IMG/VR virus record: IMGVR_UViG_2872180393_000009
Length of the DNA stretch: 9,064 bases
Direction: 5' to 3' (one strand)
Source of the DNA: a virus
Lineage: Duplodnaviria > Heunggongvirae > Uroviricota > Caudoviricetes
The notes under the pieces were generated by a model. That model saw only the letters and a program-made list of their open reading frames with translations, made no database searches and was not told the origin of the DNA. Numbering within the stretch: position 1 is the stretch's first letter; each line of letters opens with the position of its first letter. Shown here piece after piece: positions 1 to 9,064 of the stretch. The position numbers and the translations under genes are program-made.

Positions 1-303
1 TTAACGCGTATTTTTCAGCGACTCCTGTGCAAAATACGCTGTTGCTTTTTTTAATATATCTCGCTCAAGGCGAGCTTCATTTAACGCCTTACGCAGTTGC
101 AGAATTTCAGATTCCAGTTCAGCCACCGTGCGGGAACCAGGAGTACCGAGCCCTTTTCTGGCGGCGGTAACCCATTGTCCTAAAGTGTCTTCAGGAAGGG
201 ATAATCGGGAAGCGCCTTCACTGATCGAAAGTTGATTTTCAAGAACCGTTCTGACAGCTTCGGCTTTGAACTCTTTAGAGTAACGTTGGGTTTTTCTGCT
301 CAT
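1..303 (-). CDS. IS600 OrfA (IS3-family transposase N-terminal HTH protein)
   Basis: 100-aa ORF beginning MSRKTQRYSKEFKAEAV, which I recognise as IS600 OrfA. A good AGGAG Shine-Dalgarno lies upstream on the minus strand (reverse complement of 310-314). Confidence 0.9.
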   Translation of the reverse strand: MSRKTQRYSKEFKAEAVRTVLENQLSISEGASRLSLPEDTLGQWVTAARKGLGTPGSRTVAELESEILQLRKALNEARLERDILKKATAYFAQESLKNTR

Positions 304-2080: not shown

Positions 2081-2451
2081 TGCGCCATGAGTTTATTTTA
2101 CCTTATCCGCCGACGGTGAATACTTACTGGCGACGTCGTGGCTGCACATATTTTGTATCAAAAGTTGGTGAGCGTTATCGCCGTGATGTGACGCTAATTG
2201 TTCGCCAGCAGCGGCTGAAATTAAACCTGTCCGGAAGGCTGGCGATAAAGATTATTGCAGAGCCACCGGATAAGCGCCGTCGTGACCTGGACAATATCCT
2301 GAAAGCACCACTGGATGCGCTGACGCATGCCGGACTACTCATAGACGACGAGCAGTTTGATGAAATCAATATTGTGCGCGGTCAGCTCGTTCTTGGTGGG
2401 CGACTGGGCGTGAAGATTTACGAAATCACAGGTGATAACGATGGCGCGTGA
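2080..2451 (+). CDS. rusA: RusA-family Holliday junction resolvase
   Basis: 123-aa ORF with [10 protein letters not shown], matching the RusA catalytic region (PDRRRRDLDN in E. coli RusA, from memory). Typical position between replication genes and Q in lambdoid phages. Confidence 0.9.
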
Positions 2452-2827
2452 TATTCAGCAGGTTATGGAACGGTGGGGGGCTTGGGCTGCAAACACTCAT
2501 GAAGATGTATCCTGGGCGTCGATCGCTGCTGGTTTTAAAGGGTTAATTCCGTCGAAAGTGAAATCACGCCCTCAGTGTTCTGATGATGATGCAATGATAA
2601 TTTGTGGCTGTATGGCCCGGTTGAACAAGAAAAATCAGGATTTGCACGATTTGCTGGTGGATTATTACGTAGGTGGAATGACTTTTATGAGTCTGGCACG
2701 GAAACATGGGTGTTCGGATACCTGTATTGGCAAGCGCCTGCAGAAAGCGGAAGGGGTTATTGATGGCATGTTGATGATGCTTGATATCAGGCTGGAGATG
2801 GACAGATACGTAGAACGAATTATGTAG
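2441..2827 (+). CDS. Q: Late-gene antiterminator Q (short QuuD/DLP12-type family)
   Basis: Translation [23 protein letters not shown]...[18 protein letters not shown]...[23 protein letters not shown] resembles my recollection of the ~127-aa DLP12 QuuD antiterminator. ATG at 2441 overlaps the rusA stop by 11 nt; the ORF track's GTG at 2432 is less likely. Confidence 0.8.
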
Positions 2828-2831
2828 GTGC

Positions 2832-2861
2832 TTGACCAGACACATTGTCCGGGGCTATATT
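2832..2861 (+). promoter_or_regulatory. Candidate late promoter pR' (sigma70-like TTGACC-N17/18-CTATAT/TATATT)
   Basis: TTGACC at 2832-2837 and a TATAAT-like hexamer at 2855-2861, starting 5 nt after the Q stop codon, the canonical location of pR' in lambdoid phages. Confidence 0.4.
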
Positions 2862-2922
2862 CCTCACGCGCCAGCAAAATCTGGCGTCGGGATTGGAACC
2901 CCGGATAGAGACCGCGACAGAC

Positions 2923-2945
2923 ACACGCCGCGAGCGTGTTTTTTA
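2923..2945 (+). terminator. Candidate tR'-like intrinsic terminator
   Basis: 6-bp stem ACACGC/GCGTGT (2923-2928 / 2934-2939) with a 5-nt loop, followed by a T-run (2939-2945), about 60-80 nt downstream of the candidate pR'. Confidence 0.4.
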
Positions 2946-3307
2946 TTGTCGTATGCACGCGCACATCTGAATTATGGTGGGGCGCATGGGGGAGCTGAAA
3001 AGCTCGCCGGTCGGTTTCCCGGTAGTTCCAACCCTGTGCGTCTCACCACCCGATGATTGGAACCTGACGGTGTTGACAGTTTCAGGTTTGCAGTTTACAT
3101 TTCCCCGCGGTGCTCAAAACACCTCGAAAGCGGTATCCACACCCGATAGCCATGTGGTTTTTTTGTGTCCAGAATTCTTGGTTTATGACCGGGTGTGCGG
3201 CTAATACAATACCAGCAATGGAAATACGCCCGCCGACTTTCGACGGTTTTGAGCGCCCGGTCACCCTCTCAAAAGGGGTAAATCAAAATATTCGAAAGGA
3301 CATGTCT

Positions 3308-3871
3308 ATGAATCGCACGTCTATTGAAAAACTCCCGTCACTTACGCATAACCATCTTCCTGTCATGACAACAGAGCTGCTGGCTGATTTGTACGGAACA
3401 GAGCGCCAGCGTTTGACAAACAATTTCAATCGAAACAAAGAACGGTTTATAGAAGGTAAACATTTTTTCCTGATAGAAGGTGATGCGTTACGAGAGTTGA
3501 AGAACGAAAACTCTTTAAGAGTTTCTGTGAAAATTGCCCGTAACGTTCGCTCCCTCATCCTCTGGACAGAACGTGGCGCAGCCCGTCACGCCAAAATGCT
3601 CGAAACCGATCAGGCGTGGGAAGTGTTCGAAAAACTGGAAGACTGTTATTTCAACCAGAAACAGCCACCAGCGGCACAAAACACATCTATCGAAAATGAT
3701 GGATGCGCATTACTGAGCCACTTCGATAAACACGGTCAGGTTGAGTTCACGGAAAAGGTACCCGCCGATGCGATGGTATGTACTCTGGAACGGTTTAAAT
3801 TTTATCTGGAGCAACACGGGTGGATCGTTGCCCGTAAAGAGCAACTGGTGGAGCGGTTGATGCGGTTTTAA
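3308..3871 (+). CDS. ORF6N-domain (antirepressor-like DNA-binding) protein with an uncharacterised C-terminal half
   Basis: ATG at 3308 has AAGGA 7 nt upstream. The N-terminal segment PVMTTELLADLYGTERQRLTNNFNRNKERFIEGKHFF...WTERGAARHAKMLETDQAWEVF fits my recollection of the ORF6N domain consensus. The ORF track's upstream extension from 3110 has no RBS and non-protein-like composition. Confidence 0.6.
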   Translation: MNRTSIEKLPSLTHNHLPVMTTELLADLYGTERQRLTNNFNRNKERFIEGKHFFLIEGDALRELKNENSLRVSVKIARNVRSLILWTERGAARHAKMLETDQAWEVFEKLEDCYFNQKQPPAAQNTSIENDGCALLSHFDKHGQVEFTEKVPADAMVCTLERFKFYLEQHGWIVARKEQLVERLMRF

Positions 3872-4022: not shown

Positions 4023-4099
4023 GGCCCTTTAGCTCAGTTGGTCAGAGCGAGCGACTCATAATCGCCAGGTCGCTGGTTCAAGTCCAGCAAGGGCCACCA
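4023..4099 (+). tRNA. tRNA with CAU anticodon, most likely tRNA-Ile2 (ileX/ileZ-like) rather than tRNA-Met
   Basis: Cloverleaf read by eye: acceptor GGCCCTT/AAGGGCC, D-arm AGCTCAGTTGG, anticodon loop CTCATAA, T-arm GGTTCAAGTCC, 3' CCA encoded. Close to E. coli ileX as I recall it, including C4-G69 and C5-G68. Confidence 0.85.
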
Positions 4100-4100
4100 A

Positions 4101-4177
4101 CCACCACTAGCTCATCCGGATAGAGCATCAACCTTCTAAGTTGACGGTGCGAGGTTCGAGTCCTCGGTGGTGGGCCA
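4101..4177 (+). tRNA. tRNA-Arg (anticodon UCU, decodes AGA)
   Basis: Acceptor CCACCAC/GTGGTGG (unusual C1-G72), D-arm TAGCTCATCCGGATAGAGC, anticodon loop CTTCTAA, T-arm GAGGTTCGAGTCCTC, encoded CCA. Starts 1 nt after the previous tRNA. Confidence 0.8.
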
Positions 4178-4179
4178 GC

Positions 4180-4255
<76 letters not shown>

Positions 4256-4258
4256 TAT

Positions 4259-4333
<75 letters not shown>

Positions 4334-4946
4334 GCGAGATTTGAGACGAAGGTTGTTATTTGCACTGACACAATATTGTGTGGGAATGTCTGACTCCTTA
4401 CCATCTCCTGTTCTGTGATGTTGTTTTGTTGCAGTTCCAGTGCTCTTTTTTCAGCACCAGAATGGTGCATTGTCGGTCAGGTTACGTAGTGAACCTCTGG
4501 CAGGGGACTGATGATTCATCATTCTGGTGTTGTAAATATCTCTTCGGACAACTTACAAAATATTCTAAGCAAACCCCGGGAACACACTCTTAACTGCCTT
4601 GGTTGGCGGTTTTTTGTACAGTGCTCGGTATGTGTGAGCTGGAAATCAGATTTTGCATGGACTGGAATCATGCTGTTATTTAGGGGCGAAGAACTGGCTT
4701 TTTCTTCCGCCTTCTCACCAGTAATGATTAGAAAAATAATGAAATGCCCCCTCCGGGGAGGAGGACCGTAGAAAAAAGGACCCGCCAGCAAAAACATTGG
4801 GGATGAACAGCTTTCGCTACTCAGATTGCTGGCGGGTAAAGTTCCTCATGAATTAAGAATGCTACGCGATCTTTTTTAATGGAAATGAAAATTATTGTCA
4901 ATTAGACGTGCGTGTTTTTTCATACAATATTGGTAAAGGTGATTCA

Positions 4947-4980
4947 GGCCATCAGAGTTTTGCTGATGGCCTTTTTTCTT
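4947..4980 (+). terminator. Strong rho-independent terminator upstream of the holin gene
   Basis: Perfect 9-bp stem GGCCATCAG/CTGATGGCC (4947-4955 / 4963-4971), 7-nt loop, followed by TTTTTTCTT (4972-4980). Confidence 0.6.
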
Positions 4981-5229: not shown

Positions 5230-5726
5230 TGTCGCCATCATTACGCAAGGCTGTTGCAGTTGCTATTGGTGGCGGGGCTGTTGCTATAGCATCTGTGTTA
5301 ATCACTGGCCCAGGTGGTAACGATGGTCTGGAAGGTGTCAGCTACATACCATACAAAGATATCATTGGTGTATGGACTGTATGTCACGGACACACCGGAA
5401 AAGACATCATGCCTGGTAAAACGTATACCGAAGCAGAATGCAAAGCTCTCCTGAATAAAGACCTTGCCACTGTCGCCAGACAAATTAACCCGTACATCAA
5501 AGTCGATATACCGGAAACAACGCGCGGCGCTCTTTACTCGTTCGTTTACAACGTGGGCGCTGGCAATTTCAGAACATCGACGCTTCTTCGCAAAATAAAC
5601 CAGGGCGATATCAAAGGCGCATGTGACCAGCTACGTCGCTGGACATATGCTGGCGGTAAGCAATGGAAAGGGCTGATGACCCGTCGTGAGATTGAGCGTG
5701 AAGTCTGTTTGTGGGGGCTGCAATGA
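5229..5726 (+). CDS. R: SAR (signal-anchor-release) endolysin, phage 21 R-like lysozyme
   Basis: 165-aa product with an N-terminal Gly/Ala-rich SAR helix ([20 protein letters not shown]) and a T4-lysozyme-like catalytic region ([22 protein letters not shown]). Near-identical to phage 21 R as recalled. Confidence 0.9.
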
Positions 5727-6187
5727 GCAGAGTCACCGCGATTATCTCCGCTCTGGTTATCTGCATCATCGTCTGCCTGTCATGGGCTGTTAATCATTAC
5801 CGTGATAACGCCATTACCTACAAAGAGCAGCGCGACAAAAACGCAAGAGAACTGAAGCTGGCGAACGCAACCATTACTGACATGCAGCAGAGACAGCGTG
5901 ATGTTAATGCACTCGATGCTAAATACACGAAGGAGTTAGCTGATGCGAAAGCTGAAAATGAAACTCTGCGCGCTGATGTTGCCGCTGGTCGTCGTCGGTT
6001 GCACATCAAAGCAGTCTGTCAGTCAGTGCGTGAAGCCACCACCGCCTCCGGCGTGGATAATGCAACCAGCCCCCGACTGGCAGACACCGCTGAACGGGAT
6101 TATTTCACCCTCAGAGAGCGGCTGATGACGATGCAGATGCAACTGGAAGGGGCACAGGAGTATATCCGCACTCAGTGCATTAAGTAG
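5723..6187 (+). CDS. Rz: Rz i-spanin (inner membrane spanin subunit)
   Basis: [34 protein letters not shown]... is highly similar to lambda Rz as recalled. ATG at 5723 overlaps the endolysin stop (ATGA). Confidence 0.9.
5943..6125 (+). CDS. Rz1: Rz1 o-spanin (outer membrane lipoprotein), embedded in the +1 frame of Rz
   Basis: 60-aa [45 protein letters not shown]... with lipobox VVGC and a proline-rich segment, similar to lambda Rz1 as recalled. Confidence 0.85.
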
Positions 6188-6229: not shown

Positions 6230-6580
6230 ATGCCATCACTAATCCCACGTGCCTGCCGTAAGCGTGGATGTGCAGGTACAACCACAGACAGTTCGGGTTA
6301 CTGCGATAAACATCGCGGTGAAGGCTGGGTGCAGCACCAGCGCGGACTGAGCCGCCACCAGCGTGGCTATGGCTCAAAATGGACGGTGATTCGTGCCCGT
6401 ATTCTGAAGCGCGATAAAGGTCTGTGTCAGTTGTGTCTGCGTGTCGGTGTGGTGAGCGAGGCGAAAACCGTCGACCACATCATCCCGAAAGCGCATGGCG
6501 GAACAGACGCAGACAGCAACCTGCAGAGTCTGTGCTGGCCCTGCCATAAAGCGAAAACAGCGCGCGAACGAATCAGGTGA
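6230..6580 (+). CDS. HNH endonuclease (phage packaging-associated type)
   Basis: 116-aa ORF with Cys pairs (CRKRGC, CQLC, CWPC) and the HNH core DHIIPKAHGGTDADSNLQSLCWPCH. GAGG Shine-Dalgarno 5 nt upstream. Sits just before the putative cos/terS region as in HK97-like phages. Confidence 0.8.
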   Translation: MPSLIPRACRKRGCAGTTTDSSGYCDKHRGEGWVQHQRGLSRHQRGYGSKWTVIRARILKRDKGLCQLCLRVGVVSEAKTVDHIIPKAHGGTDADSNLQSLCWPCHKAKTARERIR

Positions 6581-6831: not shown

Positions 6832-7134
6832 ATGAGCAGAAAAACCCAACGTTACTCTAAAGAGTTCAAAGCCGAAGCTGTCAGAACGGTTCTTGAAAAT
6901 CAACTTTCGATCAGTGAAGGCGCTTCCCGATTATCCCTTCCTGAAGGCACTTTAGGACAATGGGTTACCGCCGCCAGAAAAGGGCTCGGTACTCCTGGTT
7001 CCCGCACGGTGGCTGAACTGGAATCTGAAATTCTGCAACTGCGTAAGGCGTTAAATGAAGCTCGCCTTGAGCGAGATATATTAAAAAAAGCAACAGCGTA
7101 TTTTGCACAGGAGTCGCTGAAAAATACGCGTTAA
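6832..7134 (+). CDS. IS600 OrfA
   Basis: 100-aa ORF MSRKTQRYSKEFKAEAVRTVLENQLSISEGASRLSLPEG..., with an HTH-like N-terminus and a leucine-zipper-like C-terminus typical of IS3-family OrfA. Confidence 0.9.
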   Translation: MSRKTQRYSKEFKAEAVRTVLENQLSISEGASRLSLPEGTLGQWVTAARKGLGTPGSRTVAELESEILQLRKALNEARLERDILKKATAYFAQESLKNTR

Positions 7135-7169
7135 TCGAACAATGGCGACAACAATTTCCCATTGAAGCG

Positions 7170-7988
7170 ATGTGTCAGGTATTTGGTGTATCCAGGAGCG
7201 GTTATTACAACCGGGTACAGCATGAACCCTCAGACAGAAAACAAAGTGATGAGCGGCTAAAACTGGAGATTAAGGTGGCACATATCCGCACTCGCGAAAC
7301 ATATGGAACCCGGCGGCTCCAGACGGAGCTGGCAGAGAATGGCATCATCGTTGGTCGTGACCGACTGGCACGTCTTCGTAAGGAGCTAAGGCTACGCTGT
7401 AAGCAGAAACGCAAGTTCAGAGCGACTACGAACCCGAACCACAATCTGCCAGTTGCGCCAAATCTGCTGAACCAGACGTTCGCTCCTACAGCACCAAATC
7501 AGGTCTGGGTGGCGGACCTGACGTATGTTGCCACACAGGAGGGATGGTTGTACCTCGCTGGCATCAAAGATGTTTATACGTGCGAAATTGTCGGCTACGC
7601 CATGGGAGAGCGCATGACAAAAGAGCTGACAGGTAAAGCCCTGTTTATGGCGCTCAGGAGCCAGCGCCCACCTGCCGGGCTAATCCACCACTCTGATCGA
7701 GGTTCACAGTACTGCGCATACGATTACCGGGTCATACAGGAGCAGTTTGGTCTGAAAACATCAATGTCGCGTAAAGGTAACTGTTACGACAACGCTCCGA
7801 TGGAAAGCTTCTGGGGAACGCTGAAAAATGAGAGCCTGAGCCACTATCGTTTTAATAACCGGGATGAAGCCATCTCAGTAATACGGGAATACATTGAGAT
7901 TTTCTACAATCGTCAGCGTCGTCACTCTCGTCTGGGGAATATCTCCCCGGCAGCCTTCAGGGAAAAATATCATCAGATGGCTGCTTAA
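7170..7988 (+). CDS. IS600 OrfB (transposase catalytic DDE domain), normally expressed as an OrfAB fusion by -1 frameshifting
   Basis: 272-aa ORF containing DDE-region motifs (WVADLTYV, HHSDRGSQY, CYDNAPMESFWGTLKNE). The orfB frame is open upstream from the A AAA AAA G slippery run at 7083-7090 inside orfA. Confidence 0.9.
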   Translation: MCQVFGVSRSGYYNRVQHEPSDRKQSDERLKLEIKVAHIRTRETYGTRRLQTELAENGIIVGRDRLARLRKELRLRCKQKRKFRATTNPNHNLPVAPNLLNQTFAPTAPNQVWVADLTYVATQEGWLYLAGIKDVYTCEIVGYAMGERMTKELTGKALFMALRSQRPPAGLIHHSDRGSQYCAYDYRVIQEQFGLKTSMSRKGNCYDNAPMESFWGTLKNESLSHYRFNNRDEAISVIREYIEIFYNRQRRHSRLGNISPAAFREKYHQMAA

Positions 7989-8098
7989 AAAAAGAACAAA
8001 TGGTAGTATCCGCTATTGCCAGTACACCTCAAAGGGGTTCATGTATTAAAAGTCGACGGAGTTAAAGAACGTTGGGTCGACTTAATGGAGATTTCAAA

Positions 8099-9064
8099 AT
8101 GGGCAAGAAAGAACAAGGATCATTACCTCTCCCAAGAGGAGTAACTATTCGTCAATACAAGAATTGCTCTACATTAGTTGTAACCTTCACATATAAAGGG
8201 GTTCTTTGCAGAGAACCCTTACCAAGGCTGGAAGCTAACGCAAAGGGGATTAAGTATGCAGAGCGACTTCTCGGAGAAATAAAAAACCAAATCTGTGATG
8301 ATTCATTCGATTTTTCAAAATACTTTCCAAACTCCAGGAAGTTAGCATTATTTGGAATGGTAAAGAAGAATAAAAGTGTGAGAGATTACCTAGATGAATA
8401 TCTGGAAATTTGCAAAAACAGAAAGTTATCTCCTTCAACAATAAATGGATATGAAAAATGCGTATCTGCATTATCGGAACTACATAAGCTACATGTCGTT
8501 GACCTGACACCAGCAATATTAAAAAAATGGATTTCAAGAAGAACAACAAAACTTAAGACCATAAGAAACAATCTGTCATTTTTAAGAAGCGCAGTAGATG
8601 AAGCGGTCACTGACGGACTTATAACGATAAATCCTGTAAAACTGGTTAGTGCAAGTAGATACCATGCGGTTAACCATACAGCCAATGCTGATGATTATGA
8701 AGTGGATCCCTTCACGCCAGCAGAGGCAACAGCTATCTACAACGCCTGTCTCTATCAGGAATGGAGAAATCTTTTTTGTTTCGCATTCAATACAGGCCTT
8801 CGAAGCTCAGAATTATGTGCATTGCGTTGGTCTGATATTGATTTTATTGGGCATACCGTTCACGTACAGGTCGCTTCTGTCGTTGGTGTAATAAAAGGAA
8901 CCAAAACAAAAGCAGGGACCAGAAAAGTTGAATTAAACAATGAAGCCATAATGGCATTGCAGTCCCAGAAATCATTTACGATGATGAGAAGTGATTTTGT
9001 ATTCAGTGATCCAAAAACACGCAAGCCGTGGGCTAATTCAGCTGCGATTCGCAAGAAAGCCTGA
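8099..9064 (+). CDS. int: Tyrosine recombinase / phage integrase, probably C-terminally truncated (likely pseudogene)
   Basis: ATG at 8099 with GGAG 8 nt upstream. N-terminal arm-binding-like segment (LPRGVTIRQY...TFTYKGVLCREPLP), box I arginine (FNTGLRSSELCALRWSDIDF) and the KGTKTKAGTRKVEL hairpin are present. The ORF stops 17 aa after FVFSDP, before the expected HxxR and catalytic Tyr. AT-rich relative to the rest of the window. Confidence 0.7.
   Translation: MGKKEQGSLPLPRGVTIRQYKNCSTLVVTFTYKGVLCREPLPRLEANAKGIKYAERLLGEIKNQICDDSFDFSKYFPNSRKLALFGMVKKNKSVRDYLDEYLEICKNRKLSPSTINGYEKCVSALSELHKLHVVDLTPAILKKWISRRTTKLKTIRNNLSFLRSAVDEAVTDGLITINPVKLVSASRYHAVNHTANADDYEVDPFTPAEATAIYNACLYQEWRNLFCFAFNTGLRSSELCALRWSDIDFIGHTVHVQVASVVGVIKGTKTKAGTRKVELNNEAIMALQSQKSFTMMRSDFVFSDPKTRKPWANSAAIRKKA

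Follow-up and report, generated by a model that had tools for sequence, protein, structure and literature searches.

The closest described relative of the locus considered here lies in the Gifsy-1 prophage (NC_010392), in which the antiterminator gene Q (STM2617) is followed in order by isrK, C4, STM2616, isrJ, a tRNA-Arg gene and isrI. STM2616, or SL2578, is AnrP, and the region has been described as the antQ-isrK-orf45-anrP-isrJ locus (Hershko-Shalev et al. 2016, PMC4825925). The promoter PisrK is active in the lysogen and gives rise to the short small RNA (sRNA) IsrK, and partial readthrough of the isrK terminator generates a longer isrK-orf45-anrP mRNA that is translationally silent. This silent mRNA is opened by IsrK acting in trans, with translation of orf45 being coupled to that of anrP through an AUGA overlap, and orf45 itself coincides both with the C4 antisense RNA model and with STnc1160, a processed RNA (PMC4825925). 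Overexpression of AnrP raises the level of antQ-operon mRNA and induces Gifsy-1 (PMC4825925). Here we describe a counterpart of this system in a 9,064-nucleotide stretch of DNA from a member of the Caudoviricetes (IMG/VR virus record IMGVR_UViG_2872180393_000009), referred to below as the window, where an anrP-type gene of 187 codons occupies positions 3308..3871. The features of the locus, from Q to the tRNA genes, are on the + strand.

Small stand-alone antirepressors provide a further point of comparison. GfoA, GftA, GfhA and FsoA are small antirepressors of the Gifsy and Fels-1 prophages (Lemire et al. 2011, PMC3121763). Repressors in Gifsy are short and non-cleavable and are inactivated by GfoA and GftA, GfoR and GfoA forming a 2:2 complex, with similar results for GftR and GftA (PMC3121763). 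Whereas the window gene lies behind RNA elements and encodes a protein of several domains, GfoA, GfhA and GftA are LexA-controlled, FsoA is controlled by the repressor of Fels-1, none of them is RNA-gated and all are stand-alone proteins. Iterated searches starting from GfoA and FsoA led to Rem, an antirepressor of the DicA repressor of the Qin prophage; ectopic Rem raises expression of dicBp-lacZ 165-fold, and the relief of DicA repression was shown genetically (Ragunathan et al. 2023).

The open reading frame (ORF) of the window gene runs from an ATG at 3308, which is the start kept in relatives in an alignment of loci, to a TAA at 3869-3871, and is preceded by a Shine-Dalgarno sequence, AAAGGA, at 3295-3300, 7 nt 5' of the start. 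An ATG two codons upstream, at 3302, was rejected as the start, being too near the Shine-Dalgarno sequence and unconserved in relatives. An index of the assembly collection contains the identical protein in 3937 blocks, and homologues number more than 4600 at E<=1e-5, so that this is certainly a real gene and not a chance ORF. The whole protein matches the PHROG family phrog_2379, 'anti-repressor', along its full length (E 4.4e-85). It is 49% identical to STM2616 over residues 3-184 (E 6e-58), and both proteins are 187 amino acids (aa) long. On the strength of this full-length homology, the same length, the place after Q and the same isrK-C4 order, the gene can be assigned to the AnrP type, as the counterpart of Gifsy-1 AnrP in both position and sequence. 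The likeness extends to architecture, as AnrP likewise has an ORF6N head followed by the invariant helix, by a linker and by a C-terminal module from the same family, and to surroundings, as anrP likewise stands directly after Q and is preceded by isrK and by a C4/orf45 region with two in-frame ATGs. The differences are that the modules of the two proteins are only ~28-32% identical, that Q belongs to the PF06530 family in the window but is of the 82 type in Gifsy-1, and that isrJ lies downstream in Gifsy-1 where the window has a cluster of four tRNA genes; an Rfam scan found isrJ (RF01393) in Gifsy-1 and no match to it in the window.

The 480 nt that separate Q (2432..2827; Pfam PF06530 Phage_antitermQ, E 2.4e-52) from the anrP-type gene contain matches to four Rfam families, all above their gathering scores. 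A sigma-70-like promoter at 2832..2861 (TTGACC-18-TATATT, 10/12 matches in a promoter scan) is the counterpart of PisrK. It is followed by a c4-a1b1 element, which comprises the upstream targets of the C4 antisense RNA (2855..2907; RF03163, 50.1 bits against a threshold of 46.7), and by the isrK sRNA with its intrinsic terminator (2868..2946), where RF01394 matches positions 2868-2944 over the full model, 1-77, at 77.5 bits against 50. The terminator, at 2923..2946, consists of a stem at 2923-2939 and a T-run, and is the sole canonical terminator that a terminator scan detects in the interval between Q and the gene. The C4 antisense RNA itself lies at 2970..3053 (RF01695, 71 bits against 45) and equates to the orf45/STnc1160 region of Gifsy-1; here too it is covered by an orf45-like ORF of 76 codons (2974..3204; ORF list) with in-frame ATGs at 2974 and 2986. 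The fourth family is discussed below.

At the level of short motifs, the hairpin loop of C4, GTTCCAA at 3025, is complementary to GATTGGAAC, which occurs at 2891 in the loop of IsrK and again, as an exact repeat, at 3055..3063, directly after C4, where it forms a second, a2/b2-like copy of the C4 target motif. By sequence, this arrangement resembles the a1b1/c4/a2b2 logic of the immI region of P1. The complementarity is confined to the motif level, the global energy of an IsrK:C4 duplex being like that of shuffled sequences (-53.8 vs -48.2+-5.2). Like the window, the immI regions of P1 and P7 (c4 - icd - ant) have a C4-family RNA that is preceded by a1/b1-type targets and followed by a repeat of the target; the C4 RNA resides in the leader of the antirepressor gene, and a small leader ORF lies between the RNA and ant. 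They differ in several respects. The a2/b2 targets of P1 and P7 overlap the ribosome-binding site (RBS) of the leader ORF, whereas the second copy in the window sits inside the leader ORF and not at an RBS; in Gifsy-1 the upstream target region has been freed as a separate sRNA, IsrK, which activates rather than only represses; and the Ant proteins of P1 and P7 carry AntA and ANT domains, whereas the window protein lacks these (Pfam finds ORF6N only) and has a Rem-like module instead. The order of isrK, C4 and an ORF6N gene after Q is also found in Escherichia coli EC12, E. coli SCU-125, a Salmonella prophage and an Actinobacillus phage, so that the gene can be described as an anrP-type gene in an isrK/C4 cassette.

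The window departs from Gifsy-1 in carrying an insert of ~250 nt, at about 3064-3300, between C4 and the gene. In an alignment of six loci the insert is shared with E. coli EC12 (L001) and the Salmonella prophage (L005) and is lacking in the remaining three (L002, L007 and L008), which are those of E. coli SCU-125, Gifsy-1 and the Actinobacillus phage. It also stands before antB of the Stx phages Nil2 and 2851. At its start is a second sigma-70-like promoter (3073..3101; TTGACA-17-TACATT, 10/12 in the promoter scan), and the homologous stretch of Nil2 is annotated as 'promoter by homology'. This is followed at 3137..3164 by a terminator- or attenuator-like hairpin read from the sequence, CCACA...TGTGG and then 7 T, with a compensatory change to CCGC...GCGG in EC12; the terminator scan misses this hairpin because its loop is longer than 8. 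Directly 5' of the RBS lies the fourth Rfam element, an sRNA-Xcc1-like structured leader at 3187..3270 (RF02221, 77.4 bits against 53). The same element precedes ORF6N-type genes in four independent loci, namely the window, L001 (4868-4951), L005 (5970-6053) and Nil2 (L003, 5149-5232), and a pairing of sRNA-Xcc1 with an ORF6N gene has been reported in a paper on APSE phages; the element named sRNA-Xcc1 may thus represent a 5' leader associated with ORF6N genes and not an independent integron sRNA. The minimum free energy (MFE) fold of the leader at 3108-3325 is marginally better than that of shuffled sequences (z -2.15). In this fold the whole leader is closed by an 11-bp inverted repeat, gtgctcaaaac at 3110-3120 with gttttgagcgc.

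Because the insert intervenes, the overlap that couples orf45 to ant has been lost, the stop codon of the orf45 homologue lying 104 nt before ATG 3308 where Gifsy-1 has its AUGA stop/start overlap, and control in this variant is probably rewired. The frame of the gene is free of stop codons from GTG 3110 to ATG 3308, and N-terminally extended gene calls running through the sRNA-Xcc1 element are possible, giving 253 aa here; the Salmonella entries P0045 and P0157 are such extended products, of 215-217 aa. The IsrK paper mentions that orf45 and anrP are fused in S. dysenteriae, giving 287 aa (PMC4825925).

The original prediction, made from the letters of the window alone, had proposed an antirepressor-type protein with an N-terminal ORF6N domain and an unrecognised C-terminal half. 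The first part is borne out both by the homology to AnrP, which induces its prophage, and by a clear Pfam match to ORF6N (PF10543) on residues 13-97 (3344..3598; 74.4 bits against a gathering threshold of 27.8, E 8.8e-21), where the AlphaFold2 (AF2) model has a predicted local distance difference test score (pLDDT) of ~77-89. This head could serve in DNA targeting, in oligomerisation or in a second activity. It is followed by a near-invariant helix, MLETDQAWEVFEKLEDCYF, at aa 98-115 (3599..3652), by a disordered linker rich in Pro, Ala and Gln at aa 116-130 (3653..3697; AF2 pLDDT <50 at residues 119-130) and by a C-terminal module at aa 131-187 (3698..3868) that AF2 predicts to form a beta-hairpin, a helix, a GW-strand and a further helix, and whose Rem-like character is indicated by profiles and PHROG. 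Separate searches of the full protein and of the tail place ORF6N on the head and no Pfam or NCBIfam domain on the tail: the last 71 aa match nothing in Pfam-A or NCBIfam, and no relative was found among PDB sequences, whether the query was the module profile or the whole protein. The C-terminal half is therefore unrecognised as far as Pfam-A, NCBIfam and PDB are concerned, but it does match PHROG families (phrog_2379, phrog_25059, phrog_995 and phrog_340) and proves to be a recurrent module. Structure prediction gives a confident fold for the module modelled alone (AF2 pLDDT 90.7), for which Foldseek finds no matching fold in the PDB.

Searching 1.84 billion representative proteins with a profile built from 14 tail variants retrieves 86 clusters at E<=1e-3, in which the module is always either C-terminal, in proteins of 170-313 aa, or stand-alone, in proteins of ~50-130 aa, where it is at times in tandem. 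A Pfam scan of 60 members placed no model on the module itself and identified as N-terminal partners Rha (11), Bro-N (8), ORF6N (7), P22_AR_N (5), Ash (3), AntA (1) and KilA-N (1), all of them N-terminal domains typical of antirepressor-like proteins. A tblastn search of 50,697 phage records with the 60-aa tail returned nothing, while the full protein does reach Gifsy-1; a word-indexed search with the tail by itself gave nothing but fragments. Across 14 diverse proteins that join ORF6N to the module, mean pairwise identity is 68% in the ORF6N head (13-97), 96% in the helix (98-115), 16% in the linker (116-130) and 31% in the module (131-187). The module is thus a discrete shuffled unit of ~60 residues, and its fast divergence is consistent with a role in specificity.

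The helix appears to mark the site of this shuffling. Conservation of the DNA at 87-93% with Gifsy-1 and the Actinobacillus phage is limited to one stretch of the gene, 3548-3662, and matches to E. coli break around nt 241-351 of the gene; both observations point to the helix-coding stretch as a recombination joint for the exchange of tails. The Stx phages Nil2 and 2851 offer a comparison, as their AntB has the same ORF6N head as the window protein (54% identity, residues 1-157) but a tail of the P22_AR_C type, the C-terminal domain of the P22 antirepressor, in place of the Rem-like module. Like the window gene, antB is preceded by the promoter and sRNA-Xcc1 insert, with isrK-C4 further upstream, before antA; it differs in lying in the nin region upstream of Q, whereas the window gene follows Q. 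In Nil2 (L003, 4019-5951) the layout runs from isrK-C4 to antA (ORF6N) and then to a second unit of promoter, Xcc1 and ORF6N that is antB (ORF6N + P22_AR_C). The authors of the record ascribed this tandem ORF6N layout to a 'retrotransposon' insertion; it looks like a module insertion at the conserved helix-coding joint. Two tandem Rem-like modules are present in the stand-alone proteins P0195, P0203, P0220, P0224 and P0227, and Rem and GftA each apparently bear one additional hairpin of this type at the N-terminus. Together, the tandem copies and extra hairpins suggest that the unit duplicates easily.

The relation of the module to Rem was assessed by several profile comparisons. Aligned against single sequences, the module profile gives hhalign values of 80% for Rem (E 1.3e-5, score 28.5) and 69% for GftA (E 4.6e-5, score 25.7). 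Against family alignments, for which a null was built from 150 column permutations, the values are 93.9% for Rem (E 1.6e-7, score 35.9; null 9.9+-2.0, maximum 16.9) and 39.5% for GftA (E 3e-4, score 21.4; null 9.4+-2.0, maximum 15.9). When a Rem hidden Markov model (HMM) was run against 240 collected proteins and 2230 background phage ORF segments, the top 27 non-self matches were all module-bearing and aligned at the module, and in the reverse search the Rem family came next after true module ORFs, from E 7.5e-7. Rem belongs to phrog_340 (E 3.5e-22), as do six stand-alone module proteins (E 1e-13 to 3e-19), and the window tail also matches this family (E 1.1e-4); in phrog_2379, to which the window protein belongs, the stand-alone module proteins also match positions 121-181. 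The part of Rem that aligns with the window module is the hairpin-helix-G[WYF] core at residues ~37-77. Rem differs in being a stand-alone protein of 83 aa with an extra N-terminal hairpin, whereas in the window the module forms the tail of a protein with two domains and has an extra C-terminal helix. GftA has similarity to the module above the null over 36-38 columns but belongs to another PHROG, phrog_4847. Judged from these profiles, the relation between the module and Rem is reasonably secure and that between the module and GftA only suggestive. No earlier report of the link to Rem was found in the literature searched; what is new here is the definition of the tail as a shuffled module and its connection to Rem, the AnrP kind of protein having already been characterised.

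These data lead us to propose, with a probability of roughly 60%, that the gene encodes an RNA-gated antirepressor whose tail inactivates a short, non-cleavable repressor. What was computed here comprises the domain architecture, the synteny and homology with AnrP, the RNA elements, the way in which the module is distributed and its homology to Rem. By analogy, we infer that the protein acts like its relatives AnrP, Rem and GfoA, with the C-terminal module being the part that would contact the repressor. The protein would then consist of four pieces: an ORF6N (KilA-N-like) head, the helix joint, the disordered linker and a swappable Rem-type module of ~60 residues. Transcription from the promoter after Q would yield the short IsrK and, through partial readthrough of its terminator, a longer leader containing the C4-like RNA/orf45 region. 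Pairing between IsrK and C4, through the loop motifs AUUGGAAC and GUUCCAA and with the second target copy after C4, would decide whether the antirepressor is produced, and the ~250-nt insert, which brings a second promoter and the Xcc1-like leader and breaks the orf45-ant overlap, would have partly rewired this control. Once made, the protein would use its module to bind and inactivate a short helix-turn-helix (HTH) repressor lacking an S24 cleavage domain, of the DicA/RacR/GfoR type, encoded by its own or by a co-resident prophage, and inactivation of the repressor would derepress early transcription. One complete prophage, that of E. coli SCU-125, was inspected from this angle, the immunity region lying ~9-10 kb upstream. 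Its ORF6N gene is 96.5% identical to the 3' half of the window gene (nt 247-564), and the prophage encodes a 153-aa repressor (WP_000753626.1), with HTH_3 only, beside YdaS/YdaT, and also encodes Rem; the short repressor is consistent with a module that targets short HTH repressors.

The promoter and terminator directly after Q tempt one to read them as the late promoter pR' and its terminator tR', as the original prediction did in calling this the first gene after pR'/tR', expressed early in the late programme. The gene would then be an ordinary late-operon moron, read from a Q-dependent pR' through tR', and there is something to be said for this. A consensus-like promoter (2832..2861) and an intrinsic terminator (2923..2946) do follow Q directly, the spacer of the promoter varies among loci with different Q families, leaving room for a Q-binding element, the strong terminator at 4946-4972 before the holin gene implies that antitermination is needed downstream, and a Q-modified polymerase starting at the 2832..2861 promoter would read through the gene. 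However, the same promoter-terminator unit is identified by Rfam as the isrK gene, and C4 and the sRNA-Xcc1-like element come after it. Matches to the isrK-C4 stretch, many of which stop short of the promoter, are present at nin-region coordinates in 251 phage records, for the most part of Stx phages, and in Nil2 the stretch was confirmed to lie before antA, upstream of Q. In the six aligned loci the -35 and the -10 region (TCCGGGGCTATATTCC) are nearly invariant, yet the Q genes upstream of it belong to three unrelated families, PF06530, DUF1133 and the 82 type. These two features, copies before ant genes in nin regions and a constant promoter behind unrelated Q families, argue that the cassette travels with the antirepressor gene and not with Q. 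Moreover, the Gifsy-1 promoter fires in the lysogen and its readthrough mRNA stays silent without IsrK, and the region after Q in the window has no similarity to the annotated tR' region of Nil2. A search for an alternative late promoter found the strong terminator before the holin gene and no convincing promoter. We therefore consider the late-operon account improbable, and the reading of the pair as pR'/tR' is corrected here to isrK. A Q-modified polymerase may nevertheless also use the cassette where it stands behind Q. With the gene behind an isrK/C4 switch that has its own promoter, expression early in the late programme is not supported in the form proposed and is at odds with Gifsy-1.

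Two other functions for the protein itself compare differently with an RNA-gated antirepressor. ORF6N is a member of the KilA-N-like group, which is regarded as DNA-binding, and the Pfam match places the head in this group, so the protein might be a transcription factor whose ORF6N domain binds the DNA of an early promoter and itself activates or derepresses it, with the module as an oligomerisation domain; the amphipathic helix in which the module ends in the AF2 model could mediate dimerisation. Against this stands Rem, which at 83 aa and from the same PHROG as the stand-alone modules relieves DicA repression without a DNA-binding head. The module also occurs on seven unrelated heads and diverges much faster than the head, as would be expected of a partner-specific surface and not of a generic dimeriser, and a Foldseek search of the PDB with the full-length model gave a best E of 0.7, with weak MarR-like matches and no significant match to solved DNA-binding folds. 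A direct transcription factor is therefore unlikely, although of the alternatives it deserves the most weight. Far less probable is a gene for defence, exclusion or host killing, acting through KilA-like toxicity or abortive infection and not as a regulator of lysogeny. The interval between Q and the lysis genes, in which the gene lies, is a hotspot for morons and defence genes, and PADLOC returns weak matches to the candidate system PDC-S05 (E 1.4e-7, 29 bits). These are confined to residues 19-106, so that only the shared N-terminal domain is matched, with nothing on the module and no full-length PDC-S05 match. In addition, the characterised homologue AnrP acts by inducing its own prophage, and a C4-type RNA switch is a hallmark of antirepressor control in P1 and P7.

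Several points weigh against the antirepressor reading. The AnrP paper speaks of 'activated transcription', without a demonstration of repressor binding (PMC4825925), and direct binding of DicA by Rem is itself an analogy with GfoA. The relation of the module to Rem rests on profile methods and the link to GftA is weak (hhalign 39%); a newer Pfam family, PF27490, is found on Rem and most Rem relatives but on none of the 120 ORF6N homologues listed, and the fold of the module has no solved relative, the best Foldseek match in the PDB being a TonB C-terminal domain at E 1.0 and a template modelling (TM) score of 0.31. With the orf45 stop/ant start overlap gone and a second promoter present, IsrK/C4 control may be bypassed in this variant. 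Finally, no cognate repressor gene was found within 10 kb in the four fetched loci that encode the identical protein (L009-L012, chromosomes of 4.8-5.0 Mb), all of which are prophage remnants riddled with insertion sequences (IS), and the gene may lack a target in those loci. Given the missing repressor gene, any activity in such an IS-broken remnant would be exerted in trans, or else the gene is idle; action on co-resident prophages, which the original prediction had suggested, is in this sense plausible.

A broader extension of the proposal is offered tentatively, at slightly less than even odds. The tail may be the repressor-binding 'warhead' of a single, hitherto unrecognised superfamily that joins small stand-alone antirepressors (Rem and possibly GfoA and GftA) with the tails of large Ant-like proteins whose heads are Rha, Bro-N, ORF6N, P22_AR_N, Ash, AntA or KilA-N. 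In prophages whose repressor is short and non-cleavable (DicA/RacR/GfoR type), two parallel inputs to induction would then converge on that one repressor by way of homologous modules, namely a small stand-alone antirepressor (LexA-controlled in Gifsy) and the RNA-gated isrK/C4-AnrP system, and the IS-stranded copy fixed in Shigella sonnei would act in trans on other prophages; a cluster 99% identical to the window protein carries the S. sonnei label. For annotation, thousands of entries named 'ORF6N domain-containing protein' in prophages of Escherichia, Shigella, Salmonella and Citrobacter could be described as AnrP-type proteins under an isrK/C4 switch, and the unannotated tail would gain a concrete role; if it is a Rem-type repressor-binding unit, the target of Gifsy-1 AnrP would be GfoR/GtgR, and the module allele would foretell which antirepressor a given resident prophage responds to. 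The present alignment would readily yield a Pfam-style model of the module. Such assignments bear on cross-talk between prophages and on induction in pathogens that carry many of them.

The remnant in the window extends from a helicase gene to an HNH gene, taking in Q and the lysis genes, and is bracketed by two inverted IS3-family copies, at 1-303 (- strand) and 6832-7988 (+ strand), whose orfA products are identical except at position 39 (D/G). An integrase gene at 8072-9064, after the right IS3 copy, runs off the window and probably belongs to another element. The helicase gene (597-1826) encodes 409 aa, compared with 463 aa in related chromosomes (L010). Downstream of the anrP-type gene, which indeed stands ahead of tRNA genes as had been noted, the cluster at 4023..4333 comprises Met(CAT), Arg(TCT), Thr(TGT) and Gly(TCC) (ARAGORN; Rfam tRNA matches), separated by 1-3 nt. 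Its first three genes align at 76-80% with clusters in L002 and Nil2 that are annotated as Ile-Arg-Arg, and by that annotation the CAT tRNA may be of the Ile2 (lysidine) type. The 600-nt spacer between the tRNA genes and the holin gene has no match in the phage collection and contains six terminator-like sites against 0.7 expected; the strong intrinsic terminator at 4946-4972 has a 10-bp stem with 6 GC pairs and a T-run and lies ~45 nt 5' of the start of the P21-type holin gene. The Rz gene at 5711-6187 has an embedded Rz1-like ORF at 5943-6125 in the +1 frame, with a lipoprotein-like start. As in related prophages, an HNH endonuclease gene (6230-6580) stands between the lysis genes and the place of the terminase genes, which are missing here.

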